64,000 nucleotides of DNA, taken from NCBI GenBank assembly GCA_963783575.1, contig CAWAOD010000003.1:96001-160000 (forward strand). The letters run 5' to 3'. Origin of the DNA: an uncultured Spirochaetota bacterium. Lineage in GTDB: Bacteria; Spirochaetota; Brevinematia; Brevinematales; JAOACQ01. Positions 25,802 to 60,118 of this stretch are shown here, one piece after another (position 1 is the stretch's first letter; each line of letters begins with the position of its first letter). The notes beneath the pieces are model-generated. The model was not told the origin of the DNA and ran no database searches. It saw nothing but the letters and a program-made list of their open reading frames with translations. A program made the position numbers and the translations under genes.

Positions 25802-25884
25802 TCGACATCATGTCGCTTGTATAACTAGCATTCTGCACAATATTGATTATTTAAGTGATGCTCTCATAGCACGTCCGTGTGCCT
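25802..25884 (-). repeat. Three-hairpin element, copy A (diverged)
   Basis: Minus strand GGCACACGGACGTGCT...GAATGCTAGTT...CGACATGATGTCG. Confidence 0.65.
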
Positions 25885-26209
25885 AATGTGGCTTCATTTT
25901 GTGCGCCCCGCAGTATGAGTGCCATTTCCGATTAATCCTTTATTAAATAAAAAGAATTCTCAGAATAAAACCGTTGTTATTCCTGTCCGACATAGTCTAA
26001 ACAAGCTTGAGGGTTTCAGACAGGAGGACTGAAACCGATGAATCAGTCCAAGCCTGCCCTGAGCATAACAAAGTGAACGGACTGATGAGGAGGCTGTTAT
26101 TTAAAGACAGCTCTTACAAAAACCACGAATAACAACACCAAGATATTATAAAGCATTCAAAACATACTATTCATACTGTTATAAATAATCAGTTATCTGC
26201 TTTAATCTT

Positions 26210-26287
26210 GGGAACAGGATGTTCCATGAAACTTTTCATTAATTATGAAGATAGTTGAACGCTAGTTTGTCAGCGCAACGATTGCGC
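26210..26287 (+). repeat. Three-hairpin element, copy B
   Basis: GGAACAGGATGTTCC-N28-GTTGAACGCTAGTTTGTC-A-GCGCAACGATTGCGC. Confidence 0.8.
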
Positions 26288-26481
26288 AGAAATGGCGTTC
26301 ATACGAAGGAGCGATTCTTTCTTGCGCCAACTCGGTTGGTGAGGTTACTCTCATTCTGATCGATCAGAAAGAGAGTAACAAAGCCCCACTTTTTTGCAAA
26401 AAATCCGGTTTTTTAATATCATATAATGTTGATTTTTATATCAGTATAAAACAAACAATAACTTTCAGGGAGGTTCTATCA

Positions 26482-27066
26482 ATGTCGGAAGATATGATGG
26501 AAATAAGATGGCACGGTAGAGGCGGGCAGGGAGCTAAAACGGCGGCCTTGCTTCTCGGTGAAGCGGCGATATCTGCCGGTAAATATGTCCAGGCTTTCCC
26601 GGAATACGGTCCGGAGAGAATGGGTGCGCCGGTGGCGGCTTATGACAGAATTTCAGGTAAGGAAATCACGATTCATTCGCCGGTATTGAAGCCGAATGTT
26701 GTGCTTGTTCTTGATGAAACATTAACCGATTCGGTAAATGTCGCCCAGGGATTACCGGAGGATTCGGGTGTTTTGATAGTCAACACGCCGTTTTCAAAAG
26801 AATCCATTAAAAACAGGATCAAATGGAACGGCAAAAAACTATTTACAATTGACGCTTCAAAAATCGCGCAATCTTTTATCGGTAAGCCTATTCCAAATAC
26901 GCCTATGATCGGGGCTTTAATCGGCGCGACGGGCCTTCTGCCGATAGAGGCTTTTATGGACGATACAAAAAGAAAACTGGAGAAGAAATTCGCTTCAAAG
27001 CCGGAGGTTATAGATGGCAACCTTAAAGCGATAAGAGCGGCTTACGAGGAGGTAAAAAAGTTATGA
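26482..27066 (+). CDS. porC: Pyruvate/2-oxoacid:ferredoxin oxidoreductase gamma subunit
   Basis: Motifs EIRWHGRGGQGA, FPEYGPERMGAP, PNTPMIGA. Confidence 0.9.
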   Translation: MSEDMMEIRWHGRGGQGAKTAALLLGEAAISAGKYVQAFPEYGPERMGAPVAAYDRISGKEITIHSPVLKPNVVLVLDETLTDSVNVAQGLPEDSGVLIVNTPFSKESIKNRIKWNGKKLFTIDASKIAQSFIGKPIPNTPMIGALIGATGLLPIEAFMDDTKRKLEKKFASKPEVIDGNLKAIRAAYEEVKKL

Positions 27067-27482
27067 CGGCAAAACCCGAATTTAAAACATGGAAGGATAT
27101 ACCGGCCGGAGGTGTGCTGGATAGCGGCACGGCTGAATATTTTCATACCGGCGACTGGAGGAGCAAAGTCCCGGTCTGGCAGGAGAAAAACTGCATCCAC
27201 TGTATGACTTGCTGGGCATACTGTCCCGATAATGCCATTAAAATCAGGGAAGGCGCTAAAGGTAAAGAAAGGGCGGGATTTGACTACGATTTCTGCAAAG
27301 GCTGCGGGATATGCCCTGAGGAATGCCCTCAGAACGCAAAAATAGTAAAAGAACTCAAAGCAAAAGATCCGGGATTGAAAATGACAGCATCATCCGGTAC
27401 CGGCAATCAGGAATTTGAAAACAGGGCAGCGATTCTTCTTGTGAGTTTGAAAGACGCCAAAGATAAATTCAATATTAAATGA
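27063..27482 (+). CDS. porD: Pyruvate/2-oxoacid:ferredoxin oxidoreductase delta subunit (2x[4Fe-4S])
   Basis: Motifs TGDWR, CIHCMTCWAYCP, CKGCGICPEECP. Confidence 0.9.
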   Translation: MTAKPEFKTWKDIPAGGVLDSGTAEYFHTGDWRSKVPVWQEKNCIHCMTCWAYCPDNAIKIREGAKGKERAGFDYDFCKGCGICPEECPQNAKIVKELKAKDPGLKMTASSGTGNQEFENRAAILLVSLKDAKDKFNIK

Positions 27483-27497
27483 CGGAGGAAAAAAATA

Positions 27498-28683
27498 ATG
27501 GAAAAAATTATAGCCGCGAGAACGGGTAATGAAGCCATGGCCGAGGCCATGCGCCAGATCAACCCCGACATATGCGCAGCGTACCCGATAACTCCGGCAA
27601 CTGAAATAATGCAGATTTTTGCGGGATTTGTAAATGACGGAAAGGTAAAAACAAATCTTATAACGGTTGAATCGGAGCATTCCGCAATGAGCGCTTGCGT
27701 TGGATCGGCCGCTTCGGGCGCGAGGACAATAACCGCGACATCTTCCCAGGGGCTTGCCCTGATGCATGAAATACTATTCATCGCTTCAGGTTTAAGGCTG
27801 CCGATAGTTCTTGCCGATGTAAACCGCGCTCTTTCCGCGCCGATAAATATCCACTGCGACCATTCCGATACAATGGCGGAAAGGGATTCGGGCTGGATAC
27901 AGATATTCTCCGAGAATTCACAGGAAGCTTACGATTCCAATGATCCAGGCGGTCAGGATAGCGGAGCATAAAGATGTGATGCTTCCGGTAATGGTAACAA
28001 CCGACGGATTCATTATCAGTCATGGAATGGAAAGGCTTGAAATGTACCCGGATATTGAAGTCCAAGAATTTACCGGGGAATATAATTTCCCATATAATGT
28101 ACTCGATACGGATCATCCTATCACAGTCGGATCTATCGTATTAACCGACTATTATTTTGAGTTTAAAAAAGCCCAGAGAGAAGCCATGAAGAACGCGAAA
28201 AAGGTCATCCTCGAAATCGGCAGGGAATTCGGGAAAAAATTCGGCAGGGAATACGGCCTGATTGAGACCTACCGCTGTGAAGACGCGGATTATATTACCG
28301 TATCGATGGGCTCAACAGCCGGTACATCAAAAGCTGCCGTTGATGAGCTCAGGCAGGAAGGCATTAAAGCGGGCCTTATCAAAATCAGGGTATTCAGGCC
28401 TTTTCCGGCGGAGGAAATTGCCGGAATTTTATCAAAATCAAAAGCCTCTGCCGTTCTGGACAGGGCAGAAAGCCTTTCAAACCAGGCAGGGCCGGTCGCT
28501 ACAGAGATAAAAGCCGGTTTATATGATGCCGGCGTTAATATTCCACTGTCAAGCTATATTTACGGACTTGGAGGCAGGGAAATATTTATTGAGGACATCA
28601 AAAATGTTTACCGCGGATTGAAAAATATGTCTGAAGGAAAAAGTAAACCAGTACAGGCCGCCTATATCGGCTTGAAAGAATAG
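27498..28683 (+). CDS. porA: Pyruvate/2-oxoacid:ferredoxin oxidoreductase alpha subunit, frameshift near 27938
   Basis: Motifs AYPITP, ESEHSA, TATSSQG, DGFIISH, RPFP, YGLGGR; one extra C splits the ORF. Confidence 0.9.
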
Positions 28684-28696
28684 TGAGGAGGGTAAA

Positions 28697-29626
28697 ATGT
28701 CAACACCAAAACAAGCTTCGGCGATAGAGACTAAATTTTCCGGAGGCCATAGGGCCTGTGCGGGCTGCGGATTTCCAATAGCGATAAAGGAAGTATTATC
28801 CTCCTGTAAAGAACCTGTAGTTGTTGTCAACGCGACCGGATGTATGGAGGTTACCTCCACTATTTTTCCGTTTTCGGCATGGAAAGTTCCTTTTCTCCAT
28901 AACGCATTTGAAAATGCGGCAGCGACTTGCTCAGGGATCGAAGGGGCTTATCAATCATTGAAAAAACAGGGTAAATTGGATAAAAACATTAAGTTTGTCG
29001 CGTTCGGCGGAGACGGCGGGACTTATGACATAGGCATTCAGTCATTGTCCGGCGCAATGGAAAGAGGGCATGATATGCTTTATGTCTGTTACAACAACGA
29101 TGCTTATATGAACACCGGTGTCCAGAGGTCTTCCGCGACACCCCGCGCCGCGCATACAACAACGGCTCCGGCCGGGAAGGCTGTCGGAGGTAAACAGCAG
29201 TTTCCGAAAGACCTGACGGAGATCATGGGCGCCCATTCGATAGCATACGCGGCGCAGACTGTTATAGGCATGTGGACGGACGCAACAAAAAAATTTGAGA
29301 AGGCTTTCGCTTTACAGGGTCCGAAATTCGTAAATATTTATTCACCCTGCGTACTGGGGTGGGGTTATGAAACTACCCAGACCGTGAAGATGTCAAAACT
29401 TGCCGTAGATACCTGCCTCTGGCCTGTTTACGAAATCGAGAACGGCAAATACAAAATCAATTATAAACCTGCGAATAAACTGCCTGTGACAGAGTTTTTT
29501 AAGACACAGACAAGGTTCAAACATATTTTGAAGAATGAGGCCGTAATTGCCGAAATTCAGGCTTATGTCGATTCAAAGTGGGAAAGGCTTTTATTAATGG
29601 AAGAAGCGACGAATAAAGTTAAGTAA
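28697..29626 (+). CDS. porB: Pyruvate/2-oxoacid:ferredoxin oxidoreductase beta subunit
   Basis: Motifs GHRACAGC, ATGC, TPP-binding GGDGG...YNNDAYMNTG. Confidence 0.92.
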   Translation: MSTPKQASAIETKFSGGHRACAGCGFPIAIKEVLSSCKEPVVVVNATGCMEVTSTIFPFSAWKVPFLHNAFENAAATCSGIEGAYQSLKKQGKLDKNIKFVAFGGDGGTYDIGIQSLSGAMERGHDMLYVCYNNDAYMNTGVQRSSATPRAAHTTTAPAGKAVGGKQQFPKDLTEIMGAHSIAYAAQTVIGMWTDATKKFEKAFALQGPKFVNIYSPCVLGWGYETTQTVKMSKLAVDTCLWPVYEIENGKYKINYKPANKLPVTEFFKTQTRFKHILKNEAVIAEIQAYVDSKWERLLLMEEATNKVK

Positions 29627-29642
29627 GTTTAATATTTATATA

Positions 29643-29669
29643 AGCCCCGGAAATACCCGGGGCTTTTTA
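29643..29669 (+). terminator. Rho-independent terminator after the por operon
   Basis: AGCCCCGG-AAATAC-CCGGGGCT followed by TTTT, between convergent genes. Confidence 0.8.
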
Positions 29670-29681
29670 TTTATTACTTTA

Positions 29682-30362
29682 TTACCTGAGATACTCTATT
29701 TTAATATCCGGCTGTATTGAAATCCCCGGTTTTGCAAACAATTCGACAAATCTGCAGCCTTTTTGCGGATGGAATAAATTGGCGGAAGCGCTGCTTCTTA
29801 TTATCCATGCGGTATCCAGTCCTCTTTCAGTGCCGGCAAGCGCCAGAACATTCTCGTTTTCTGGGATGACACCGGCATCCGTACACATTAAAACCGATTC
29901 AAGACAGACAAGTGTCCCGGTAGAAATCAATTCAAGAGTTTTAGCTAAAATATCCATGGACGATATATGTTGTAAGTGCAGCCTCATAGAAAAACTCGGC
30001 CCAAAAAATGGAATGGTTCCCCTGACAGTCTTCACACCAAGTTTTTCCAGTTTAATTTTATTTTCCTCAGTAATTTCCATAGGTACGGTTTTCAGGCCAT
30101 TTTTCAGCCAATCATCCCTTATTTTTGATAATTCCGGGATTTCTGCAAATATATCACGGCCCATTTTATCCGCTTCCCAGAACATTCCCTGCGGGCAGGT
30201 TACGCAAATAATATTTTTATCTTTGACCCTTTCAGCCAATTTTACAGCACTGTCGTCGGTAACTGAGGCTACAGCGATATACCGGTATTTTTCCGCTTCA
30301 ATCAGGGCAATTTCAATAATGCCCATGGTATTTACCGGCCCGGGCCTCTCAAATACTTTCAT
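29682..30362 (-). CDS. Stand-alone pyruvate kinase C-terminal (alpha/beta) domain protein
   Basis: Motifs FERPGPVNT, VAS, MCTDAG, AGTERGLDTA. Confidence 0.7.
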   Translation of the reverse strand: MKVFERPGPVNTMGIIEIALIEAEKYRYIAVASVTDDSAVKLAERVKDKNIICVTCPQGMFWEADKMGRDIFAEIPELSKIRDDWLKNGLKTVPMEITEENKIKLEKLGVKTVRGTIPFFGPSFSMRLHLQHISSMDILAKTLELISTGTLVCLESVLMCTDAGVIPENENVLALAGTERGLDTAWIIRSSASANLFHPQKGCRFVELFAKPGISIQPDIKIEYLR

Positions 30363-30445
30363 AATACACTTCCTTCTTAATGAAAGTCACATTATCTTAA
30401 TAACAATATTGTTTCTAAGAATATCGGTCAATTTTAGTTATAAAT

Positions 30446-34031: not shown

Positions 34032-34051
34032 AAAACCTCCAGTTTGTAAAC

Positions 34052-34148
34052 GGTATGAAACGGACATCCCCTGGAGGAAGGTTACTGACATATTACTTTT
34101 TGATCTATGCATCCGGACTACCAACCGGATAGTGTTTTTATCCATACC
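34052..34148 (-). ncRNA. yjdF riboswitch
   Basis: Minus strand AAAAACAC..CGGTTGGTAGTCCGGATGCA..TGTCAGTAACCTTCCTCC..GGGATGTCC with closing stem GGTATG/CATACC, directly upstream of yjdF. Confidence 0.92.
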
Positions 34149-34237
34149 AATAAATCACTTATTTCCTTTAGTTAATAACTTTATTAATAACTTTTTTTTA
34201 AAACCTCCTTATATTGAGATATTGAGACTTAGAAAAT

Positions 34238-38748: not shown

Positions 38749-38764
38749 TGCCGCAGAGCCACGT

Positions 38765-38847
38765 ATAACATCGTGTTATTTGGCGAACTAATGTTCGCCA
38801 CTGGCTTATATATTAAAGAGTGGATATAATGGCGCATCCTTGCGCCC
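38765..38847 (-). repeat. Three-hairpin element, copy C
   Basis: Minus strand GGCGCAAGGATGCGCC-N31-GGCGAACATTAGTTCGCC-AA-ATAACACGATGTTAT. Confidence 0.8.
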
Positions 38848-39147
38848 AGAGTTCATGCCGAGCCCGTCGAAGCACGGTTTCCATAGCGTAGATATCTGCT
38901 TATTAAATATTGAATTATCCGATTTTTATTAAACATTCTTATTTCATTCAATAGCGGGACAATAGACAATCGTTTTAACCTTCAAGCTAAGAAGCAATAG
39001 GAGCACGGACAATTTTGCTGAAAAATAATGTGAAATGGCGCTAATGCTGCAGAGGCATTAAAGCAGACTTATTTTATTGCTAAAGATTATTGGAAACTGC
39101 TACAGGAAAAAGAATCACTGGTATAACCTACAAATCAAACAATCAAT

Positions 39148-39225
39148 GGGAGCAGGATGCTCCATAACATTCTCCCAATAGTTAAAAGCTAGCCGAACGC
39201 TAGTTCGGCAGCGACACGATGTTGC
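39148..39225 (+). repeat. Three-hairpin element, copy D
   Basis: GGAGCAGGATGCTCC-N28-GCCGAACGCTAGTTCGGC-A-GCGACACGATGTTGC. Confidence 0.85.
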
Positions 39226-39465
39226 AAAGAAGCTCTTAAATAATTTTATTTTTTCTATTGACATATGATTTTTTATGAATTATGATTAAGCGTTTGAAAT
39301 CAGTTGGATGCTATTCTGACAGAATGGTATTGATAAAATAATAAATAAAATGATTCCTTTCAAGAAACTAAGGCCATACCAAAGGTTTCTGGTTTTACCT
39401 TCAGTACCGATTTACTCAAAAATAATCATAACGGACCATTAATTATTATGAACCGGGAGGCGTTC

Positions 39466-41454: not shown

Positions 41455-43971
41455 ATGGAGAAGGAAAGGGAGTTTATAGCGCATTATAGGGAAAAAGATA
41501 AGAAACCTCAAACTGTAGCAGAACATTTACTACAAGTTTCCCAAAAAACTGGTAAATTTGCATCAATAATCGGTTTAAAGGAAGTTGGAGAACTTATCGG
41601 TTTGCTTCATGATCTAGGAAAATACAGTGAAGAATTTCAAAATTATATTGGATCGGCAACGGGATTAATTGATATTGATGAAGAAAATTATGTTGATAAA
41701 ATCGGGAAGAAAGGAAAAATTGACCATTCCAGCGCAGGAGCGCAGGTAATTTTTGAATATTTTTTTCCTAAAGGCCCAGAGGGTCTGATTATCGGTCAAT
41801 TTTTATCTCTGTGCATAGCTTCACATCATTCAGGATTAATTGACTGCATTGAACCGGATGGAACAAATAATTTCAGTCGTCGTTTAAGTAAATCGGAAGA
41901 AAAGACTCACAAAAACGAGGCTATGAATAATATTTCCGATGATTTAAAACAAAAATTAAATAAGTTATTATCTGATGAAACTGTTGTCAATCAATTAGTC
42001 TGCAAGCTTAAGAATTTAATAGACAAAAATAACGATTCAAAAGAAACTTTTAATTTCAAGAGAGGTTTATTGATTCGCTTTCTTTTTAGCTGTCTGGTTG
42101 ATGCCGATCGTCTGGATTCAGCAGCTTTTGAAAAACCGGTAGGAACTATGTTTAGAAATTATGGGGATTATACCTCCTGGGATATTTTAATTGAAAGGCT
42201 GAATCAAAAAATCATCGAATTTGACGCTAAGGTAAATAGAAATAAAGTGGATCGGATCAGAAAAGAAATATCCGATGACTGCTATTCTTTTGCTGATCAT
42301 ACAAATGGAATTTATCAATTGACAGTCCCAACAGGCGGGGGGAAAACTCTTTCCAGTTTAAGGTTTGCTCTTTGCCATGCAAGACGGAATAAAATGGATA
42401 GAGTTGTTTATATTGTTCCTTTCACTACCATTATCGACCAAAATGCAGAAGAAGCAAGAAAAATTCTGGAGGATCGGGATTCAAAAGGAAAATATTTGAA
42501 CCGCGTAGTATTGGAACATCATTCAAACTTAACACCGGAAGAAGAGAACTGGACACAAAAGTTATTATCGGAAGACTGGGATGCGCCGGTTGTATTTACA
42601 ACCAGTGTTCAATTTTTAGAATGTTTGTTTGGATTCGGTACCAGAAGTGCAAGAAGAATGCACCAGCTGGCTAATTCGGTAATTATTTTTGATGAGATTC
42701 AAACTATACCGATAAGGTGTGTTCATCTTTTTAATATTGCTCTTCGCTTTCTGGTTCAGAATTGTGGATCGACGGCAGTACTTTGCACTGCGACTCAACC
42801 GCTCCTTGATTTATCTAAAATAAAACCGGAATATAAAACTCGCTCTTTATCCATCATGCCAGAACAACAGATGATGAAAGATGTGAATAAGCTTTTTAAG
42901 AATTTGAATCGGGTTGAGGTATTTTATAAGAGAATAGCTGGAGGCTGGACAGATATCGATGTAAAAGATTTGGTTCTGGAAGAACTTCAGGAAACGGGAA
43001 GTGTCTTGATAGTTGTTAATACAAAAAAATCGGCAAAAACATTGTATAAAACTATCCTGAATGAAAACCGGGGAAAAACTTTTCATTTGAGTACCGATAT
43101 GTGCCCCAGACACAGAATGATCGTTTTGAAGTATATTAAAAGACGTCTGAAAAAAGAACCTATTATTTGTATTAGCACACAATTGATAGAAGCCGGTGTT
43201 GATATTGATTTTGGGTCGGTTATCCGTTATCTGGCCGGTTTAGACTCCATTGCGCAGGCGGCTGGACGCTGTAACCGTGAAAACAGATTATGCGATTCCG
43301 AAGGGAATTTAAAACCCGGCCGGGTTTTTATTATTAATCCGATAGATGAAAATCTTGATAAACTTGAGAATATCAGTATAGGCAAAGAAATAACGGAACG
43401 TGTATTAAATGCGTATAAAAATACACCGAATAGTTTTGATAACAATATACTGGGACCAAAGGCTATGGAACTTTATTATCAATATTATTTTTATGAACGG
43501 CAGAATAAAATGAATTATCCTGTTGGAAAAAATTCGGAAGCTGGCAGGGAGGATAATTTATTTAACTTATTATCAGTCAACAGCCTGTCTGTTAAAAATT
43601 ACTGGAAAAACAATAATGATACATCACCGAACATACCGCTGAAACAGGCTTTTATGACCTCTGCGAAAGAATTTCGTGCATTTGATTTACCCACAAGAAG
43701 CTTGATTGTGCCTTTCGGAAGAATGGGAAAAAAGATAATAAATGAACTTTGTGCTTCACCGGATATGGAAAAAGAATTTAAACTTCGTAAAAAAGCACAG
43801 AGGTATTCAATTAATTTGTTTCCCTATATTTTCGATAAGTTGATTAAGAAGGGGGCTATTCATGAAGTTCAGAAAGGAGCAGGCATATATATTCTGGACA
43901 AACAATATTACAGCAATCAATTTGGACTGAGCGAAGAACCTGTCAACGAAATGGAATTTTTAAACATATAA
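41455..43971 (+). CDS. cas3: CRISPR-associated helicase/nuclease Cas3 (type I-C)
   Basis: HD motif LHDLGK, LVDAD, Walker A PTGGGKT, DEIQ, STQLIEAGVD, QAAGRCNR. Confidence 0.96.
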   Translation: MEKEREFIAHYREKDKKPQTVAEHLLQVSQKTGKFASIIGLKEVGELIGLLHDLGKYSEEFQNYIGSATGLIDIDEENYVDKIGKKGKIDHSSAGAQVIFEYFFPKGPEGLIIGQFLSLCIASHHSGLIDCIEPDGTNNFSRRLSKSEEKTHKNEAMNNISDDLKQKLNKLLSDETVVNQLVCKLKNLIDKNNDSKETFNFKRGLLIRFLFSCLVDADRLDSAAFEKPVGTMFRNYGDYTSWDILIERLNQKIIEFDAKVNRNKVDRIRKEISDDCYSFADHTNGIYQLTVPTGGGKTLSSLRFALCHARRNKMDRVVYIVPFTTIIDQNAEEARKILEDRDSKGKYLNRVVLEHHSNLTPEEENWTQKLLSEDWDAPVVFTTSVQFLECLFGFGTRSARRMHQLANSVIIFDEIQTIPIRCVHLFNIALRFLVQNCGSTAVLCTATQPLLDLSKIKPEYKTRSLSIMPEQQMMKDVNKLFKNLNRVEVFYKRIAGGWTDIDVKDLVLEELQETGSVLIVVNTKKSAKTLYKTILNENRGKTFHLSTDMCPRHRMIVLKYIKRRLKKEPIICISTQLIEAGVDIDFGSVIRYLAGLDSIAQAAGRCNRENRLCDSEGNLKPGRVFIINPIDENLDKLENISIGKEITERVLNAYKNTPNSFDNNILGPKAMELYYQYYFYERQNKMNYPVGKNSEAGREDNLFNLLSVNSLSVKNYWKNNNDTSPNIPLKQAFMTSAKEFRAFDLPTRSLIVPFGRMGKKIINELCASPDMEKEFKLRKKAQRYSINLFPYIFDKLIKKGAIHEVQKGAGIYILDKQYYSNQFGLSEEPVNEMEFLNI

Positions 43972-43981
43972 GGGGTGACAT

Positions 43982-44768
43982 ATGGAAAACAGAATCAGAA
44001 ACACGGTTGAATTCAAGGTATCCGGTAAATATGCCCTGTTTACCGACCCACTCACAAAAATCGGCGGTGAAAAATGTTCCTACCAAATTCCAACCTACGA
44101 AGCTCTAAAGGGCATTCTCAGTTCCGTTTACTGGAAACCCACAATTATCTGGATTATTGACAGAATGCGGGTAATAAAACGCATCAAAACCCAGACCAGG
44201 AGTATGAAACCTCTGAATTATGGAGGTGTATATCCAACGGCTAGAGATTTAAGCAAAAAAGAAGAACCATTTAACTCATTGTCAATTTATACTTATCTTG
44301 CCGATGTGGAATATCAGGTTCAGGCGCATTTTATATGGAACAAGTATCGGGAGGATATGACGAAAGACAGGAATGAAAATAAGCACCATTGCGTTGCCCG
44401 CAGGATGATCGAGCGCGGTGGCAGGCGGGATATTTTTCTGGGAACACGGGAGTGCCAGGGATATGTAGAGCCTTGTGTATTCGATAAAGAAACGGGATTT
44501 TATGACAATTATGGTGAACTTTCTTTTGACCTGATGTTTCATGGATTTGATTATCCGGATGAGATCGGAGAACCGAAACTTTACTCACGGTTTTGGAGGC
44601 CGAAGATGATAAACGGAATTATTGATTTTATCAACCCGGATGAAAAAAACGATAATCGTCATGAAACGGAAGTTTGTCAGAAGAATGACCGCAAAACCTC
44701 TGGCTTCAAACGGACTTGAAGAAGAAGGCTTGTTGGAAGGTTGTGAAAATAAGGAGGCGGAAATATGA
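43982..44768 (+). CDS. cas5: Cas5c (Cas5d); an extra A near 44645 shifts the C-terminus
   Basis: Motifs ALFTDP, SYQIPTYEALKG, FLGTRECQG. The corrected frame ends in an ATGA overlap with cas8c. Confidence 0.93.
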
Positions 44769-46726
44769 GCTGGATTCAAAAGCTCTATGATACCTATGAA
44801 GCATGTCAACCTGTGATTGGAAAGGATATTAAAAATCCGCTTTTGCCAATATGCCACATTTTACAAAAGGTTCAAATTGAGATTACAATTGATAACGAGG
44901 GCAATTTTATTAAAGCAGAACCAATATATAACGAAAACGAAGCAAAAACAATAATTCCTTGTACAGAAAACTCCGCAAGCAGAACAAATAGTCCAGCACC
45001 ACACGCGCTTTGTGATAAATTACAATATGTTGCGGCAGATTATAAGGAATTTGGCGGAGAAAAAAAATCATATTATAGTGATTATCTAAAACTGTTAGAG
45101 TCCTGGTGTAAATCAGAATTCAAACATCCGAAAGCTGTAGCTGTCTTTGAGTATATTAAAAAATGCCGAATAATTGCGGACTTAGTGGATTCTAAGGTTT
45201 TTTATGCTAAAGATGGAAAATTAATGAAAAAGTGGGAAGGAGAAAAAAAGGATAAGCCAAAACTGTTTACAATTTTCCAAAATCAGACTTGGCAAGCTGA
45301 GTCATTTATACGATGGATTATTATAAAACCGGGAGAACTCCAGACAAAAACTTGGACTGATGAATCTCTCTGGAAAAGCTGGATAGATTATTATTCAAAT
45401 TTAAGAAATGAAAAAGGATTCTGTTATGTAAAAGGAACTTCCTTATTACTTACAGACTTACACTCAAGGTACATCAGGAAAGAGGGAGATGGAGCAAAAT
45501 TAATTTCTTCTAATGACACATCTGGCTATACCTTCCGTGGTCGGTTCTTAAATGCAGATCAAGCCAGTGGAGTCAGTTTGGAAGTTTCCCAAAAGGCGCA
45601 TCTTGCATTGCAATGGCTAATAAGGCGGCAGGGGAAGATTTTTTATGTCAAAGGTGATAATGGAAAGTTTGAACCCGCTTTAACTATTGTTGCTTGGTCA
45701 ATTTCCGAAAATCAAACTCCTGATTTAATAATGGTTGATACCTCTGGGATAATAGGTGAAGACGATTTGCCAAGTGATGAAGCATCGTTAGCCTATACCG
45801 CCCAGGATTTTGCTTTAAAATTGAACAAAAAAATTTCCGGTTACAGTCAAAATCTGAGAGATACAAAAGGTGTAGTTGTGATGGGTCTGGATTCCGCCAC
45901 TCCCGGACGTATGGCAATCACTTTTTATAGAGAATTGACCAGTTCGGAATTCCTGGATCGGGTAGAAAACTGGCACAAGACCTGTTCCTGGATTCATGAT
46001 TATGGTGTAAAAGAAATAGATAAAGATGGTAAAATGGAGAAATCTTACTATCGGTTCGTCGGCGCTCCATCTCCTGATGACATTGCACTGGCAGCCTACG
46101 GCAGGCATTTGGATGATAAACTCCGTAAATCGACCGTGGAAAAGCTTTTACCGTGCATCATTGACGGGCAAAAATTGCCAAAAGGTCTGGTAGAGTCGGC
46201 GATCAGTCGTGCGAGTAACAGGGTTGGAATGAAAAATTGGGAATGGAACAAAACGCTCAGCATTGCCTGCGCGCTTTATAGAAAATATTACGAGAATGAA
46301 AATTATAACGGAAAGGAGGGTTTTGATATGGCACTTGAAGAAAACCGAAGAACCAGGGATTATCTTTACGGAAGGCTTCTAGCACTTGCAGACAGGCTGG
46401 AGGAATATGCGTTAAGCAAATCAGGAGAAAAAAGGGCGACAAACGCCGCAAGATATATGCAGCAATTTGCTAACCGTCCCAATAAGACATGGCAGCAGAT
46501 TGAGACGGCATTATCTCCTTATCTTGCAAGACTAGGAGGCAGGGCAATCTGGTATAAAGATTTGGTAGATGAAGTAATGGGCAAATTCGATTCAGTCGAG
46601 AGCTTTACGTTAGATAAACCATTAACTGGTGAATTCTTATTGGGCTATCATTGTCAAAGAGAAAAGCTAAAACCATCAAAAAAAGAAGAAAATCAGGATG
46701 ATTTTTCTGAAAAACAAGAAAGTTGA
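44765..46726 (+). CDS. cas8c: Cas8c/Csd1 large subunit
   Basis: Motifs MSWIQKLYDTY, PHALCDKLQY, AKLISSND, TPGR, DYLYGRLLA, FLLGYHCQ. Confidence 0.94.
   Translation: MSWIQKLYDTYEACQPVIGKDIKNPLLPICHILQKVQIEITIDNEGNFIKAEPIYNENEAKTIIPCTENSASRTNSPAPHALCDKLQYVAADYKEFGGEKKSYYSDYLKLLESWCKSEFKHPKAVAVFEYIKKCRIIADLVDSKVFYAKDGKLMKKWEGEKKDKPKLFTIFQNQTWQAESFIRWIIIKPGELQTKTWTDESLWKSWIDYYSNLRNEKGFCYVKGTSLLLTDLHSRYIRKEGDGAKLISSNDTSGYTFRGRFLNADQASGVSLEVSQKAHLALQWLIRRQGKIFYVKGDNGKFEPALTIVAWSISENQTPDLIMVDTSGIIGEDDLPSDEASLAYTAQDFALKLNKKISGYSQNLRDTKGVVVMGLDSATPGRMAITFYRELTSSEFLDRVENWHKTCSWIHDYGVKEIDKDGKMEKSYYRFVGAPSPDDIALAAYGRHLDDKLRKSTVEKLLPCIIDGQKLPKGLVESAISRASNRVGMKNWEWNKTLSIACALYRKYYENENYNGKEGFDMALEENRRTRDYLYGRLLALADRLEEYALSKSGEKRATNAARYMQQFANRPNKTWQQIETALSPYLARLGGRAIWYKDLVDEVMGKFDSVESFTLDKPLTGEFLLGYHCQREKLKPSKKEENQDDFSEKQES
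46328..46726 (+). CDS. cas11: Probable internally translated Cas11 small subunit
   Basis: In-frame ATG preceded by AAGGAGG inside cas8c, just before the DYLYGRLLA domain. Confidence 0.7.
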   Translation: MALEENRRTRDYLYGRLLALADRLEEYALSKSGEKRATNAARYMQQFANRPNKTWQQIETALSPYLARLGGRAIWYKDLVDEVMGKFDSVESFTLDKPLTGEFLLGYHCQREKLKPSKKEENQDDFSEKQES

Positions 46727-46740
46727 AATAACGGAAGCAC

Positions 46741-46808
46741 CCGGTCATTGAGCGGAGTCGAAATGACCGGTAGATATTTGACGGGCACCTCGGCTCCGCT
46801 CGGTGTCC
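46741..46808. repeat. Palindromic doublet (GAGCGGAGTCGA / CTCGGCTCCGCTCG) between cas8c and cas7
   Basis: CCGGTCATTGAGCGGAGTCGAAATGACCGG-N12-GGGCACCTCGGCTCCGCTCGGTGTCC. Confidence 0.8.
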
Positions 46809-46841
46809 AAATATAATAACAATTTTAAGGAGGAATTTTAT

Positions 46842-47805
46842 ATGGAAACTCTGAAAAACAAAATTGATTTCGCGGTAATTATCAGTGTCAAGAACGCCAA
46901 TCCGAACGGCGACCCACTCAATGGGAACCGTCCCAGGGTCAATTATGAAGGCGAAGGCGAGATTTCCGATGTCTGCATCAAGCGGAAAATCAGAAATAGA
47001 TTGATGGAAGCAGTTGAAACCGATGAAAAATGTGAACCAAAAATTAAAGATGGAAAGCCAATTTACAAATATAAAGTATTTGTCCAGCCGGATGATAATC
47101 GTTTAGATGATTATCGGAGCCTGCGTTCACGTGCGGAAGGCGAATTGAAAGGCATTGATATGAAAGATGATAAAAAGTACCGTGAAGAAGCCTGTAAGAA
47201 ATGGATTGATGTCCGTGCATTCGGGCAGGTGTTTGCCTATAAAGGTGGCAGTAAGAAAGGCAAGAAAGAAACAGAAGGTGAAGAGGAAAAAGGAGATGAT
47301 AAAGGGGTTTCGATAGGTATACGAGGCCCGGTTTCAATTCATTCCGCATTCTCGAAAGCTCTCGTGAATGATCGAGTATCAAGTATTCAAATAACAAAAA
47401 GCGTTAGTGGAGAAGGAGATAGCGGTAAGCGTGGTTCCGATACAATGGGTATGAAACATCGGGTAGATCATGGAATTTATGTATTCTATGGGGCTATGAA
47501 TCCACAGCTTGCAAAATTGCCGCATGGTACTGGCTTCAGTGACGATGATGCAAAAGCGATTAAAGAGACTTTAATTAAATTGTTCCAGAATGACGCTTCA
47601 TCGGCGCGTCCGGAAGGGAAGCATGGAAGTCGTAAAATTGTACTGGTGGCAGCATAATTGTGCTTCCGGGCAATATTCATCAGCTAAAGTTCACCGATCG
47701 TTGACGGTAGAACCAAAAAGTGATAATCCGAAATCGATTGAGGATTATGAGATAAAATTATCAGAATTGCCTGGTTTAAAGCCGGAAATATTGGATGGTT
47801 TATAA
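46842..47805 (+). CDS. cas7: Cas7c/Csd2; an extra G near 47616 shifts the C-terminus
   Basis: Motifs NPNGDP, SDVCIKRKIRN, DVRAFG, DTMGMK; corrected NDASSARPEGSMEV..SSAKVH. Confidence 0.94.
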
Positions 47806-47840
47806 ATTTTCTCGAAATACTATAGGTTTTCTACTTTCCC

Positions 47841-47886
47841 TTCAGGATTGTACGGAGCAGTCGCGACTGCTCCGTACAATCCTGAA
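47841..47886. repeat. Perfect 46-bp palindrome between cas7 and cas4
   Basis: TTCAGGATTGTACGGAGCAGTCG|CGACTGCTCCGTACAATCCTGAA. Confidence 0.9.
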
Positions 47887-47940
47887 AGGCATAATGCGGC
47901 AAGGGTTCCTTAAGTAATATAATAAAAAGGAGGCCATCCA

Positions 47941-48589
47941 ATGCCCTATCCCGAATCCGATCTAATCGCCATCTCCGCACTCCAGCATTACATCTTCTGC
48001 CCCCGCCAGTGCGCGCTGATACATATCGAGCAGGCCTGGGAAGAGAACAGTTTAACCGCCGAGGGAAGAAACCTCCACGACCGCGCACATGGCGATTCGG
48101 CCGAAACCCGTCCGGATTGCCGGAGGATTTTTTGGCATGCCATTGAGGTCGCTGGAACTGGGTCTAACAGGAAAGGCCGACTGCGTAATGGAGACGCCGG
48201 AGGGTAAGTATATTCCACTTGAATATAAGCGCGGGAGGCCGAAAGTAAAAGAAATGGACACCGTCCAGCTCTGCGCGCAGGCTTTTTGCCTGGAGGAAAT
48301 GACGGGGAAAAACATTGAAGAGGGATTTATCTATTATTTCCGGATTAAAAAAAGGCTGCATGTTAATATCGATAAACCTTTAAGGGACTTGACGGAACAG
48401 ACTGTCCGCGGCATACGGACAATGATGGAAAGCGGCAGAACACCGCCGCCGGAATATTCCAAACGCTGCGAATCGTGCTCTCTGGAGGAACAATGCCTGC
48501 CGGAAGCGGTAGGTAAGAAAAAATCCGTGAAGAAATATATCGTGAAAATGTTGGCGGATGATATTTCTAAAGTAAATATAGGAGGCTGA
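47941..48589 (+). CDS. cas4: Cas4; an extra T near 48130 splits the ORF
   Basis: Motifs ISALQHYIFCPRQ, GKAD, EYKRG, QLCAQ, CESCSLEEQC. Confidence 0.93.
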
Positions 48590-48591
48590 AT

Positions 48592-48978
48592 ATGCCTTAT
48601 ATGTATATACTTGAATGCTCTGACGGGACCTATTATACTGGAAGTACATGGGATTTGGAAAAAAGATTGGATGAGCATAATAGTGGTGCCTCGGAGCCGC
48701 CAAGCGGCCGGGGAGCAAATTATACCAGGAAAAGACTGCCGGTAAAAATTGTTTATTTTGAACAATTTGAACGGATTGAATCTGCTTTTAAACGGGAAAA
48801 GCAAATTCAAAATTGGAGCCATGTGAAAAAGAAGGCTCTTATAGATGCAAATATTAATTTAATCCATAAATTTGCTATTTGCAGAAACCAAAGCCGGTCT
48901 CCGAGCGTAGTCGAGGAGCCGGATGATACGAAATGGTCGTCTCGGCTTCGCTCGACGACCGATATAAAAGGAAATTAG
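48592..48978 (+). CDS. GIY-YIG nuclease family protein
   Basis: YMYILECSDGTYYTGST, RLDEHN, GANYT..RLPV, AFKREKQIQNWS..KK; GGAGG RBS. Confidence 0.9.
   Translation: MPYMYILECSDGTYYTGSTWDLEKRLDEHNSGASEPPSGRGANYTRKRLPVKIVYFEQFERIESAFKREKQIQNWSHVKKKALIDANINLIHKFAICRNQSRSPSVVEEPDDTKWSSRLRSTTDIKGN
48894..48960. repeat. Palindromic doublet in the 3' end of the GIY-YIG gene
   Basis: CCGGTCTCCGAGCGTAGTCGAGGAGCCGG-N12-GGTCGTCTCGGCTTCGCTCGACGACC. Confidence 0.8.
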
Positions 48979-48980
48979 TC

Positions 48981-50012
48981 ATGAAACGCCTTCTCAACAC
49001 TTTATTTGTAACCACACAGAAAACCTACATGAGAAAACAGGGGGAAACACTGGTTGTCCAGCAGGGAAAGGACATTCTGCTTCAACTGCCGCTGATCAAT
49101 CTTTCAAGTATCGTCTGCTTCGGAAATATCCGCATCAGCCCTTTCCTGCTTGGGAATTGCCCGAAATACGGGATCAGTGTGAGTTTCCTGTCCCAATACG
49201 GCAAATTTCTCGCGCGTGTACAGGGTCCGGTATCCGGCAATGTACTGCTCAGGCGTGCCCAATACCGGATGACGGACGATTCTAAAATCTGTGCTGATAT
49301 TATCCGAAATATAGTCATCGGAAAGATTTCCAACTGCAGGACAGTTCTGCAAAGGGCGCAAAGAGACCATGCAGGTAAAATCGATGAAGCTAAAGTCAAT
49401 AGCGCTGTCGAATCACTGGAAAGGGCAATGAACAAAGCCATGGAAGCGAAAGAAGCGGATGTATTGCGTGGAATTGAAGGTGATGCGGCCCGTGAATATT
49501 TTGGAGTATTCAATGAATTAGTCGTCACACAAAAAAATGATTTTACATTTAATGAACGTTCAAGAAGGCCGCCGCTGGACAGGGTTAATGCTCTTTTGTC
49601 CTTTGTTTATACCCTGCTTTATCATGATATGCGCTCTGTACTGGAATCTACCGGGCTTGATCCGGCAGTCGGTTTTCTGCACCGCGACCGGCCGGGGAGA
49701 TTGTCGCTCGCTCTTGATTTGATGGAGGAATTCCGGCCGTATTTTGCGGACAGGCTTGTTTTGTCATTGATAAATCTTAAACAGATCGAACCGAGACAAT
49801 TCAGAATTCTGGAAAACGGCGCCGTTTTAATGAATGATGCGGCAAGGAAAACGGTTTTAGCAGCTTATCAAAAGCGCAAGCAGGATTCGATCAGGCATCC
49901 ATTTGTTGACAATGATATGCACATCGGCCTGTTATTTCATACGCAGGCTCTTCTTCTGGCAAGGTATATCCGGGGAGATATTGATGGCTACCCGCCTTTT
50001 ATCTGGAGGTAA
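48981..50012 (+). CDS. cas1: Cas1 (type I-C)
   Basis: MKRLLNTLFVT, SGNVLLRRAQY, LRGIEG, RRPPLDRVNALLSF, LDLMEEFR, YPPFIWR. Confidence 0.97.
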   Translation: MKRLLNTLFVTTQKTYMRKQGETLVVQQGKDILLQLPLINLSSIVCFGNIRISPFLLGNCPKYGISVSFLSQYGKFLARVQGPVSGNVLLRRAQYRMTDDSKICADIIRNIVIGKISNCRTVLQRAQRDHAGKIDEAKVNSAVESLERAMNKAMEAKEADVLRGIEGDAAREYFGVFNELVVTQKNDFTFNERSRRPPLDRVNALLSFVYTLLYHDMRSVLESTGLDPAVGFLHRDRPGRLSLALDLMEEFRPYFADRLVLSLINLKQIEPRQFRILENGAVLMNDAARKTVLAAYQKRKQDSIRHPFVDNDMHIGLLFHTQALLLARYIRGDIDGYPPFIWR

Positions 50013-50014
50013 TT

Positions 50015-50302
50015 ATGATGGTTCTGGTCAGTTATGATGTTGCGGAGGATGAGCTTGGTAAAAAAAGACTCAGGCATGTTGCAAAAATCTGCAAAAACTT
50101 CGGGCAGAGGGTTCAGTATTCCGTATTCGAATGCCTGGTAGATCCCGCCCAATGGGCTAAAATGAAAGATGAACTGATCCGGGAAATTAACCCGAAGTTC
50201 GACAGTCTCCGATTTTATTTTCTTGGGGCTAACTGGAAAAAGAGGGTTGAACACCTCGGGGCAAAAAAGAGTTACGACCCGGAAGGTCTTCTATTAGTTT
50301 AA
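50015..50302 (+). CDS. cas2: Cas2
   Basis: Motifs VSYDV, GQRVQYSVFEC, DSLRFYFLG. Confidence 0.97.
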   Translation: MMVLVSYDVAEDELGKKRLRHVAKICKNFGQRVQYSVFECLVDPAQWAKMKDELIREINPKFDSLRFYFLGANWKKRVEHLGAKKSYDPEGLLLV

Positions 50303-56183: not shown

Positions 56184-56215
56184 GAATATATATTTTTTCT
56201 TGGAGGAAAACAGAT

Positions 56216-57983
56216 ATGTCAAAATTGACAGATGAATTATTAACGATGGAAGGACATAATTCCATTTTTGAACAGGAAATCCGAAAATTAAAAGTACCGG
56301 TCTGCAGTATTTTTTTAAAAAACAGTAAAATATTGCCCGCGTCATTCACAAAGGCTATGAAAACTCTTGGAACCGGTGATGTTGAAAATGTCAATAAAGA
56401 ATTTCCAAAAACCGTTAAAATGACCGAAAACCGCGTACTTGAAGGTAAAAATTCAGATAACGCACCGGCTTCGGGAAAAAAGAGTGGCCGTTTTATTTTC
56501 GGGAGGACCGGCGGCTGGCGGTCATAATGTAATAGTTGGGCTGATCAAGGTTCTTGGAAAGGATAATAAGTTATTCGGCGTTCAGGGCGGACCGAAGGGA
56601 TTGATTGACGGCAAGCTTTTTGAAATAAAAGAAGAAGATATTCTTCAGGTCATAAATACCGGCGGTTTTGATTTTCTCGGCTCCGACAGGACCAAGATCA
56701 AAACCGATGAACAGTTCGCAGCAGTTAAAAAAACGGCAAAAGATTTTCAATTGAACGGTATTGTTGTTGTCGGCGGAGACGACTCAAATACAAATGCCGC
56801 GATACTCGCCGAACTTCTATATGACGAAGGCGTGCAGGTTATCGGAGTGCCTAAAACAATCGACGGCGATCTTCAAATGGGCGACATGCTCCCGATATCC
56901 TTCGGTTTCGATACTGCCACTAAAATTTATGCCGAAATGGTGGGAAATATACTTCAGGATACGCCATCATCCAGAAAATACTGGCATTTTATTAAGCTTA
57001 TGGGCAGATCGGCCAGTCACGTGGCTTTGGAAGTTGCCCTCCAGACAAAACCAGCTATAACATTGATTTCTGAGGAAGTCGAAGAAAAGAAAATGTCTCT
57101 TTCGGAAATTGTGGCAAATATCTGCGATACCGTGGCAAAGCGCGCGGCAAAAGGAATTAATCACGGCGTTGTTGTGGTACCGGAAGGATTGATTGAGTTT
57201 ATACCGGAAATGAAAGATCTAATCGCGGAACTCAATGAAATAATTGCTGAGTTCGGCGAAGATTTAAGCAGGATAGCTTTCTTTGAGGGCAAAAAAGATT
57301 TCCTGTATAAAAAAATGACTGCCGATTCGGCAAAACTTATGGCATCACTGCCCGATGAATTTGAAAAGATGCTTCTCCTGGACAGGGATTCCCATGGCAA
57401 CCTTCAGGTTTCCCAAATACCGACAGAAAGGCTTTTGATCCAGATGGCTGAGGAAAAGCTTCAGGAAATGAAGCGCCATCCTGATGAATTCAAGCATCTT
57501 AACCTGAACCAGGGTGAGGCAAAGAAATTCATGGAATCAAAATTCGCTACAAATTCACACTTTTTCGGTTATGAAGGCCGCTGCGGCGCACCGACATTGT
57601 TTGACGCCGCATATACCCTCAACCTCGGATTAACAGCCGGTTCACTTATTCTGGACGGAAGAACGGGATACATTGCTTCCATTTCCGATCTTGATAAGGG
57701 CGGGAAGGTTCTTGCGCTTCCATTAACGGGTCTTTTGAATATCGAAAGAAGGCATGGGAAAAATGAGATGGTAATTAAAAAGGGCCTGGTTGAAACCGGT
57801 TCCCCCGCTTTCCAGTATTTTGCGAACCGCCGCAGCGAATGGGCTGCTAAAGATTATTTTACAAGCCCCGGCCCAAGACAGCTCTGGGGCCCCGTATCAA
57901 AACAGCTTCCGATGACCATAGCGCTTAACCGCTATTACGATTCAATCAGGTTTGACCTGGGCGCTGAAACAAAAATAGGCTGA
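56216..57983 (+). CDS. pfp: Pyrophosphate-dependent phosphofructokinase; an extra A near 56480 splits the ORF
   Basis: Motifs SGGPAAGG, GGDDS (PPi-type), PKTIDGD, MGR, GYEGR. Confidence 0.9.
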
Positions 57984-58025
57984 GTTTAATAATAAGTTTA
58001 ATCCGCATATTTATTTATTTGAACA

Positions 58026-58898
58026 TTATTGATTGTGATTCAACGTAAATGATATGCGGGTTTTGTACAAATCCGCAAGATCCTTTTCATCCTCTATGAT
58101 CAATGTATCTTCAGAGTGTGCTTTTGAATATCCTCTGAAAAAGTAGTTTATACCGCCGCCTCCCGGTTCGCCCTTCCAGGCTTTGATATTGAGCTTCTGC
58201 TCATAGAAATTCTTTACATTTTCCATTGAATCACGAGTCAAAAAGTAATGATAAAAAATCCCGCCTCCAATAGTCGATGAACGGGATGAATCATATACCG
58301 ATTCCGGAAATTTGGAAACGCCGAGTTCATCTTCGGAGGGAATAATATTTGGAACCGATTTTGAATAAGTTTTACCCATAATGCCAACCTGGGTATTATA
58401 ACCTTTTTTATAGTAAAAATTACATATTGTGATTTCAATAAAATTAATATCCCCGCCCGGGCTTTTCCTGTACCAATGAAAAGTATGGACAACGCCTCCG
58501 GAAACTGTCATGGACTCATAATACACAGGTGTCGAATCTCCGGGTTTTAGCAAAAGGGGATCGACAGAAATCCACTTTTGATAGTTCATATTAACACCAT
58601 TCAATTTTTTTAAATAAAACCCATATACGATATCCCTTTTTTCCGCGGTAATATAACAGTTTGTAAAACCGTCTTTAACCGGCGGGTTTCCCGGCAGTGC
58701 CCTAAGAGTTTCCTGAATAATCCCGCCTAAACTATAGGGTTTTGGCTGTTCATAAATTTCAGAACCCGGGAATAAGGGTATGTTTATATCAGAGTATTGT
58801 ACCTGATCTGCAATTATCGGAGATTTAATCAAAACTAAAAAGACCGCTAAAGCAACAGGAAAAAATATTTTTATCATATTCAAACTCCCAAAATTCAT
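58026..58898 (-). CDS. Secreted hypothetical protein with an internal two-domain repeat
   Basis: Signal-like N-terminus; two similar segments (FPGS...FYLKKL and FPES...FYEQKL). Confidence 0.6.
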   Translation of the reverse strand: MNFGSLNMIKIFFPVALAVFLVLIKSPIIADQVQYSDINIPLFPGSEIYEQPKPYSLGGIIQETLRALPGNPPVKDGFTNCYITAEKRDIVYGFYLKKLNGVNMNYQKWISVDPLLLKPGDSTPVYYESMTVSGGVVHTFHWYRKSPGGDINFIEITICNFYYKKGYNTQVGIMGKTYSKSVPNIIPSEDELGVSKFPESVYDSSRSSTIGGGIFYHYFLTRDSMENVKNFYEQKLNIKAWKGEPGGGGINYFFRGYSKAHSEDTLIIEDEKDLADLYKTRISFTLNHNQ

Positions 58899-59026
58899 TT
58901 TTTCAGAACAGCCTGATTGTTTGTTTAATGGCCATCTAATAATTATATACTAAATTTAATATTCTGTATAATCTTCTTCCACAAAAAAGAATTTTTTTAA
59001 TAAATTTGGAAGGAATGAAATAAATT

Positions 59027-59488
59027 TTATGCCTGTCTTAAAGTTTCTATGTCAATTTTGTCCATTTTAAGCATCGCCGAAAAGGCTCTTTTTGATTTCT
59101 CAGGATCCTTATTATTCATTATCTCGCCTAAAGCAGCCGGAACAATCTGCCAAGAGAGGCCATATTTATCTTTCAGCCAGCCGCATTGTCCCGTTTTTCC
59201 GCCTTCCGAAAGCTTCTCCCACATTTCATCCACTTCATCCTGATTCTTACAATTTACAAACAGAGATATTGCTTCAGTGAAAGGAAATTGAGGGCCGCCG
59301 TCTATCGCCATAAAATCCTGGCCATCAAGCTGGAATACAGCGGTCAAAACCTTCCCCTTTTGTTCCGGTACATCATCTCCATATCGAGTAATGCTAACAA
59401 TCTTGGAATTTTTAAAGATAGAAACATAAAAATTGATAGCCTCTTCGGCTTTACCGTCAAACCACAGGAATGGAGTTATTTTTTTCAT
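59027..59488 (-). CDS. VOC/PhnB-like (3-demethylubiquinone-9 3-methyltransferase family) protein
   Basis: MKKITPFLWF, CGWLKDKYGLSWQIVP; GGAGG RBS. Confidence 0.92.
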   Translation of the reverse strand: MKKITPFLWFDGKAEEAINFYVSIFKNSKIVSITRYGDDVPEQKGKVLTAVFQLDGQDFMAIDGGPQFPFTEAISLFVNCKNQDEVDEMWEKLSEGGKTGQCGWLKDKYGLSWQIVPAALGEIMNNKDPEKSKRAFSAMLKMDKIDIETLRQA

Positions 59489-59716
59489 ACAATTACCTCC
59501 TGGATTGAGTATATTGGCAGCCTTCATAATCAATCCATTTTTCAATTTAAAAATTAGCATAATAAATTCATTTTGACAAGTTGAAAGGTTTAAATTACTA
59601 AGATAAAAAATTTAAATCGGCGGGTAAGGAAAAGTAAAGTAAATAATTTCAAATTTAGACATTTTGTTAGCATATTTCAAACCCGGTAATCACTTTACTA
59701 ACACCGTGAGTGCATA

Positions 59717-59920
59717 TTAATTTTTGCCTTTTTGCATCCTCCAAGCGCCCAGGTTTAGAATGATGCCTACTACGAAAGCAATTGCACCGTTAATAACCCA
59801 TAGCATTTTCCCCGACATAACGCTGCCCGGAAGAACATTAATCCCCTGGAGAAACCATATTAAACCCATTAATGCCAATAAAATACCTATTATAATGATT
59901 ACAATTTTTAAAATTTTGAT
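59717..59920 (-). CDS. Small two-TM membrane protein (67 aa) missed by the ORF track; ATC in the start position
   Basis: AGGAGG-N6-ATC, then IKILKIVIIIIGILLALMGLIWFLQGINVLPGSVMSGKMLWVINGAIAFVVGIILNLGAWRMQKGKN*. Confidence 0.7.
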   Translation of the reverse strand: MKILKIVIIIIGILLALMGLIWFLQGINVLPGSVMSGKMLWVINGAIAFVVGIILNLGAWRMQKGKN

Positions 59921-60038
59921 ATTGCACCTCCTAAATTTTAAATATTTTATCTTAAATGATATATTAATGTCAATAATTTTTGAAATAATTTAATTATAAT
60001 TTTTTATTTAAATAAAATACGGCAGCCCAAGTAAGCTC

Positions 60039-60118
60039 GGGAGCACGGATGCTCCATGAAATCCTCTCTTTAGCCAATAAAACCGCCGAACGATAGTTCG
60101 GCAGCGCAACGATTGCGC
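60039..60118 (+). repeat. Three-hairpin element, copy E
   Basis: GGAGCACGGATGCTCC-N29-GCCGAACGATAGTTCGGC-A-GCGCAACGATTGCGC. Confidence 0.85.

Follow-up and report, generated by a model that had tools for sequence, protein, structure and literature searches.

As far as the accessible text of the sources goes, transposons of the IS91 family have a marked polarity, make no target duplication and can undergo one-ended transposition (PMC13181058, PMC3189936), and TnpA-REP cleaves at short motifs (PMC8266576). Several gene-free repeats are described in comparable terms in the available portions of the literature: in the miniatures of IS91 and IS801 one end is fixed and has subterminal palindromes, the other is leaky and captures flanks, and insertion takes place at a short target motif without target duplication (PMC3189936, PMC13181058); the REP, REPIN and BIME repeats are lineage-specific and intergenic, number about 100 diverse copies, form clusters or tandem arrays, lie near stop codons (sometimes sharing the TAG) and are targets of insertion sequences (IS) (PMC8266576, PMC3733652, PMC3337134, 10.1101/279083); the streptococcal composite repeats BOX and SPRITE are modular, structured and intergenic, often placed at stop codons without truncating genes, with an uncertain mover (PMC3049150); and TD-1 and TD-2 of Treponema denticola are covarying motifs of several hairpins that occur in many copies, are restricted to the species and have an uncertain status as RNA (PMC1950547). 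Each of these descriptions has a counterpart in the element studied here, a unit of three hairpins first noticed as five dispersed copies in a 64,000-nucleotide (nt) stretch of contig CAWAOD010000003.1, from an uncultured Spirochaetota bacterium (positions 96,001 to 160,000; the whole stretch is called the window below). We followed this unit through the genome that holds the window (G000; 4.9 Mb, 90% complete) and through one genome of the same genus (G001; 57% complete). The unit is very probably mobile DNA, and the reading we favour, with a probability of roughly 0.6, is a gene-free repeat that is moved as single-stranded DNA (ssDNA) by a putative HUH-type (Y1 or Y2) strand-transfer enzyme acting in trans.

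The five copies lie, as originally predicted, at 25802-25884(-), 26210-26287(+), 38765-38847(-), 39148-39225(+) and 60039-60118(+), and have the stems assigned to them (e.g. hairpin 1 GGAACA/TGTTCC, hairpin 2 GCCGAAC/GTTCGGC, hairpin 3 GCGCAA/TTGCGC). The three-hairpin layout stands, and the unit proved longer than the approximately 80 nt first given, since it includes a conserved CCAAGTAAC-like motif 5-13 nt 5' of hairpin 1 and an A after hairpin 3. A profile hidden Markov model (HMM) started from the five copies and refined on 66 unique copies returned 126 matches at E ≤ 1 in the genome, compared with 0 in the reversed genome, and 119 matches in 89 loci at E ≤ 0.01, and a covariance model built from 38 copies returned at least 109 matches at E ≤ 0.01 among the best 150 candidates scored; each scan extends the family to more than 100 copies. 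These are diverse: 76 of 80 full-length copies are distinct, the sole repeated sequence being IS-borne, and mean pairwise identity is 66% (73-76% in the stems, 46% in the linker). On the strand that carries the GGA loop, four of the five window copies fold better than shuffled sequences with z between -4.2 and -5.9, and copy 1 has z -1.3.

The claim that the stems differ and keep pairing was borne out on an alignment of 38 copies, taken from a set of 40 full-length ones after two with deletions in hairpin 3 were excluded. Stem cells were paired in 93% of cases, compared with 24-40% in slid controls, and two-sided changes occurred at 13 of the 19 pairs (82 cells), a level reached in 0 of 500 shuffles; kinship among the copies, which was left uncorrected, inflates these covariation figures. 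The bias of G-T wobbles towards the GGA strand, from which strand-specific folding had been proposed, disappeared with larger numbers (19 each of G·T and A·C in the alignment; 31 G·T and 30 A·C in 89 unique copies). Of the loops described as near-constant, those of hairpin 1, located by anchoring on GGA, end in GGA followed by ATGA, and that of hairpin 2 varies widely across the family; hairpin 3 resembles a shorter sibling of hairpin 1. Rfam covariance models gave no match at gathering score on the window copies and none at E ≤ 5 in 8 loci with copies, in agreement with the earlier impression that this is no named RNA family.

Mobility is indicated by sites that occur both with and without the unit. 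Five copies of an IS1182-family element hold it inside the transposase gene, a sixth has lost hairpins 2 and 3 between short repeats, and there are an intact 494-aa allele and a second allele without the unit; the closest database homologues of the transposase all have an empty linker, and the empty state is therefore ancestral. At this site the unit, together with ~20 nt of foreign 5' DNA, took the place of ~26 nt. Other dispersed repeats likewise occur in filled and empty versions: copy 2 of the window is a clean insertion within the right end of a repeat that we call family A, with an empty paralogue that is continuous across the site, one copy on contig C5 replaced ~22 nt of its target, and two dimers in head-to-head arrangement, their fixed ends facing outward, stand in place of ~31 and ~55 nt. 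No target duplication was seen in these filled and empty cases, whether in the IS1182 transposase or in the other dispersed repeats. Empty versus filled sites, a comparison suggested together with the original prediction, were thus found as paralogues within the same genome; one low-depth DNA sequencing run showed no joints. The disabled IS1182 allele was seen in six copies (G000:C5:474950-481331, C10:76057-82498, C9:386605-387888), compared with one intact allele, and likely kept moving in trans; its copies lie in cassette-like arrays with toxin-antitoxin genes. A Phd/ParE toxin-antitoxin pair (G000:C10:204989-206001) and a Doc-like gene (G000:C11:628826-630291) each lie between directly oriented three-hairpin copies and, judging from this arrangement, are possibly captured passengers.

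The junctions of the element are polar. The 77 non-redundant 3' flanks, drawn from 93 anchored copies, have A at +1 in 83% of cases, any base at +2, a purine at +3 in 96% and G at +4 in 79%, with no conservation past +4. RG is present at this fixed end in 60 of the 77, against a background of 9.5%. Identity to empty paralogues is 0.19-0.36 before the junction and then 0.43, 0.56 and 0.78 at +1, +2 and +3 (31 junction groups, some of them chance matches), and because it rises across these positions, the A is usually the last base of the element and NRG belongs to the target. The terminal A has exceptions, among them a group with C at +1 whose junction, like that of copy 5, shares a TAG stop. 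The 5' end is ragged: it follows no junction rule, extra DNA is carried along, and 20-55 nt of target are often replaced. CAAG, one of the boundary tetranucleotides of IS801 in the accessible text (PMC3189936, PMC13181058), stands at this variable end in 28 of 56 copies. Copy 4 has ~100 nt of 5' flank in common with two other copies whose 3' junctions differ, a stretch that either travelled with the element or was left by adjacent deletion from a fixed end. Copies are also clustered, 56 of 114 having a neighbour within 400 nt, where 300 random placements gave a mean of 10.8 and a maximum of 24. Single copies make up 63 of the 89 loci, and the 26 multi-copy loci hold mostly same-strand neighbours, with five head-to-head pairs and no lone tail-to-tail pair.

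The original proposal of an ssDNA substrate for an HUH enzyme fits these junctions, with their one fixed end, short target motif, lack of duplication and ragged second end, and falls short in that no cognate enzyme was found. In the mechanism that we envisage, the hairpins would be extruded in ssDNA and recognised by shape and loop bases; the enzyme would nick beside hairpin 3, the origin-like end, and join that end to an NRG site, and transfer would end imprecisely at or beyond a CCAAG motif, a leaky terminator-like end. Movement from many separate source copies would let the stems stay paired while sequences drift, and the insertion of copies beside or into one another would give head-to-head dimers and tandem arrays; some of the replacements and the pile-up at stop codons may stem from later deletions that start at the fixed end. 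The same polarity would fit equally well a SINE-like route, in which a GGA-strand transcript that ends at hairpin 3 plus A is reverse-transcribed at a nick by a resident reverse transcriptase (RT). The genome has seven RT matches, and the extra 5' DNA could be read-through transcript; against this stand the lack of G·U enrichment on the GGA strand, the absence of a poly(A) or T tail at the fixed end and the finding that, among the neighbours scanned, no RT gene recurs beside copies. We consider this route very unlikely, and we know of no SINE-like RNA-templated element shown in bacteria.

Spread of the unit might also require no dedicated enzyme, if it were a BOX- or BIME-like mosaic module propagated among neighbouring repeats by breaks at hairpins, microhomology repair and template switching, while quasi-palindrome correction restored the stems. 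The genome is indeed rich in hairpin repeats that interleave, and outside the family it has 99 hairpins with a GGA loop, where the whole reversed-genome control has 44; mismatches are symmetric, and the IS1182 junction has a few nt of microhomology. However, a sharp NRG motif at a fixed distance and at one end only would be hard to obtain by generic repair, as would insertion into unrelated coding sequence, and we regard this explanation as rather improbable.

Movement by an HUH-type enzyme, which we prefer, has a number of results weighing against it. RG is absent from 17 of the 77 junctions, no clean junction at the CCAAG motif was found versus an empty allele, and the empty alleles are same-genome paralogues, not true pre-insertion sites. 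The frequent replacement of target by the unit is not described for IS91 in the accessible parts of the sources (PMC13181058, PMC3189936). Mismatches show no strand asymmetry, which a strand-specific enzyme might leave, and replichore counts of 22 vs 35, with 57 ambiguous, give no clear bias either way (p=0.11). No intact or cognate HUH gene was found in the 90%-complete genome. Three Y1 genes lie 0.4-2.6 kb from a copy and all are broken; the nearest, a frameshifted gene in the window, is 0.4 kb from copy 1, and we rejected it as the cognate enzyme, given that 13 loci of its homologues have no three-hairpin match and 11 of them have a different palindrome. The Y2 core family is absent from the genome at E ≤ 0.1, with only IS91-like fragments left, and 30 loci of the local Y2 family contain 0 three-hairpin matches, most of them stopping short of the origin end.

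Other candidates were also set aside. The Y2 remnants have no apparent link to copies, and one Y2-family locus that does reach the origin end finishes differently. Only 2 IS110 genes are found less than 1 kb from any copy, and the copy is the same for both; among other multi-copy families of open reading frames (ORFs) only IS1182 types repeatedly adjoin copies, as parasites or hosts. No recurring DNA-processing gene emerged near copies (Pfam, 56 of 95 neighbouring ORFs; PHROGs, 14; an atlas search with one orphan that has a copy on each side). The enzyme may have been lost, left unassembled or gone unrecognised. With regard to the genes themselves, the window Y1 gene has long palindromes just upstream of and inside its coding region, in a paralogue on contig C4 the inner palindrome is interrupted by another IS, and a truncated IS91-like zinc-binding ORF with an in-frame palindrome insertion (L134:1465-1767) lies between two near-identical esterase-like gene copies.

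The other proposal first made for the unit, a structured non-coding RNA (ncRNA) family, finds no specific support, as there is no wobble strand bias, copies 3' of genes are mostly GGA-antisense, and insertions lie in a transposase gene and in repeats. On an RNA reading, the family would be kept as functional RNA, as dispersed CsrA-binding leaders or sponges or as stabilisers of mRNA ends. The fixed ends do lie within 15 nt of a converging stop in 19 of 77 cases, where the opposite end does so in 4 of 77 and random points in 21 of 972 (by mechanical ORF calls), and a few copies end directly at a Shine-Dalgarno-like sequence. The resemblance of hairpin 1 to a CsrA site also holds at the level of sequence: with GGA in its loop it fits the consensus (PMC8668096), ACARGGATGT occurs exactly in 9 of 56 copies, and csrA is present in the genome. 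Each unit, however, has one GGA hairpin (three at most in an array), where CsrB/Rsm RNAs have multiple GGA loops per transcript. In addition, GGA is antisense in 31 and sense in 14 of 45 copies just past stop codons, and unbiased upstream of genes (14 vs 12); the neighbouring genes, when tabulated, had no common function; copies sit inside a transposase gene; the family is limited to one genus among the genomes searched; and csrA follows a gene that we take to be FliW-like. A CsrA or ncRNA role thus appears less likely, and retention of the family as functional RNA highly improbable, and co-option of single loci as RNA is possible whatever the nature of the family. By eye, two copies (G000:C13:3295-3377 and 177244-177327) abut the apparent 3' end of a tRNA gene in antisense.

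The likeness to described systems has clear bounds. The unit shares with IS91-type elements one fixed end, one leaky end and the lack of target duplication; its fixed end meets A followed by a loose NRG, whereas the IS91 target is CTTG/GTTC in the accessible text, and some empty sites read CTTG or CTAG on the other strand where the filled ones hold the base of the element. Unlike the IS91 miniatures, it has no parent element that we could find, and its copies are not near-identical; moreover, the Y2 remnants of this genome have a different terminus. With REP sequences it shares many diverse, clustered, lineage-specific intergenic copies. The GTAG/CGTC tag is absent, since on the opposite strand hairpin 3 has a loose CYNT at its foot, most of which comes from the target; in place of the inverted doublet of REPIN there are three different hairpins in direct order and mostly single loci; and in place of a cognate RAYT flanked by the repeat there are broken Y1 genes near copies, with homologue loci that carry another palindrome. 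Without the tag, the inverted doublet, a CTTG/GTTC target and a parent gene, the unit does not qualify as either an IS91 miniature or a REP element. The closest idea in the accessible text is that of class 3 and subclass 2.6 Y1 enzymes with "atypical structures". BOX has IS-like terminal inverted repeats (PMC3049150, accessible text), whereas the unit has none and shows a polar junction, and neither terminal inverted repeats nor a target site duplication, the marks of miniature inverted-repeat elements of DDE type, were found. The comparison with TD-1 and TD-2 is by description only, and mobility and junctions are not described in the accessible part of that source (PMC1950547). We found no description of the element in the literature; subscription texts, figures and supplements (including the REP tables of 10.1101/279083 and the TD-1/TD-2 alignments) were outside this search and could bear on novelty. 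The element is best filed among non-autonomous palindromic mobile repeats, where it stands out by its polar junction rule and its missing enzyme.

Its distribution is narrow. The same-genus genome has four confident copies, one of them in a 1.7-kb stretch (G001:C3) that is 98% identical to G000:C6; orthologues of window genes in that genome are only 64-74% identical, and from these values the contig may be misbinned or recently shared or transferred. The covariance model found 0 matches in 10 family genomes of other genera and, among the best 27 candidates per genome, one weak match in 150 phylum genomes (E 0.007), which resembles coding DNA by eye. A hairpin-2 pattern run on 35 order-level genomes gave 34 matches in this genome, 1 in the same-genus genome and 1 in another (control 3). 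Exact-pattern scans gave 0 in GTDB contigs, metagenomes and viral contigs, among which near relatives may not be represented, and 19 viral matches to hairpin 3 alone were dismissed, the rest of the unit being absent. Outside the genus only chance-level matches occurred, and among the genomes searched the family is confined to one genus.

The copies in the window and the features next to them are listed in Table 1. Copy 1 lies at the outer left end of the family-A repeat, which is a target of the three-hairpin element and not a part of it. The fixed end of copy 3 is 16 nt past the stop of a radical SAM gene, and copy 5 touches the TAG stop (60119-60121) of a converging 505-aa gene. This gene, the one examined for truncation by a fixed end, is not truncated, since its C-terminus agrees with its three closest homologues.

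Table 1. The three-hairpin element and adjoining features in the window (window positions).
Feature	Position	Strand	Details
Frameshifted Y1 (RAYT-like) gene	24958..25520	+	Own, different palindromes; judged not cognate
Copy 1, decayed	25801..25895	-	5' motif, hairpin 1 25868-25883, linker, imperfect hairpin 2, hairpin 3 25802-25816, terminal A 25801
Family-A dispersed repeat	25905..26310	.	~25-30 relatives, imperfect inverted ends; hosts copy 2, adjoins copy 1
Copy 2 as inserted, ~123 nt	26166..26288	+	~42 nt extra 5' DNA, hairpin 1 26211-26225, linker, hairpin 2, hairpin 3 26273-26287, terminal A 26288
Copy 3	38764..38847	-	Hairpin 1 38831-38846, hairpin 2, hairpin 3 38765-38779, terminal A 38764
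5' flank of copy 4	39032..39135	+	Shared with two copies on contig C11 that have different 3' junctions
Copy 4	39136..39226	+	5' motif, hairpin 1 39149-39163, hairpin 2, hairpin 3 39211-39225, terminal A 39226, then target AAG
Copy 5	60026..60118	+	CCCAAGTAAGC motif, hairpin 1 60040-60055, 29-nt linker, hairpin 2 60085-60102, hairpin 3 60104-60118

The element is itself a target. GGA loops are insertion sites of a 538-aa IS1182 element, which is present in four copies and duplicates 6 nt; in one case the site lies clearly within hairpin 1. A small palindrome, in turn hit by a 35-copy IS1182 element, is likewise inserted immediately ahead of GGA. Other repeats of the genome also have many GGA-loop hairpins. 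At window positions 39000-39030, half of a hairpin 1 is followed by a fragment that by eye matches the end of the 538-aa element, and this arrangement reads as the scar of an IS insertion into a GGA loop. At 26038-26090 the small palindromic repeat, elsewhere the target of the 35-copy element, lies in the loop of a GGA-type hairpin of the family-A repeat. Family A, a second dispersed repeat family with internal GGA hairpins, is seen in the window at 24440-24640 as well as at its tabulated position and also occurs in the same-genus genome. Further features of the window are a Type I-C-like cas operon at 41455-50302 (cas3, cas5, csd1, cas7, cas4, cas1) with a 128-aa GIY-YIG nuclease ORF between cas4 and cas1, an azaaromatic (yjdF) riboswitch at 34044-34151 (-) upstream of a DUF2992 gene, and a pyruvate:ferredoxin oxidoreductase alpha subunit in two overlapping frames at 27498-28683 (+), the result of either a frameshift or an assembly error.

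Beyond the filing given above, it is conceivable, if unlikely, that the family represents a new class of mini-replicator, a ~95-nt three-hairpin "half-transposon" with a single defined end that would overwrite its target at NRG and capture flanks upstream of it, possibly along with small genes enclosed by two copies. It would be driven by an enzyme from outside the known Y1 and Y2 families or by an RT, as a bacterial SINE analogue. Taken together, these results caution against taking strong covariation as proof of functional RNA when a motif is multi-copy: in this family the covariation is accompanied by evidence of mobility, and wobbles favour neither strand. The filled and empty junctions of the family occur naturally and follow a clear rule of polarity and target, so that the strand and position of cleavage can be predicted and tested, and the enzyme could be fished for with the hairpins as bait.

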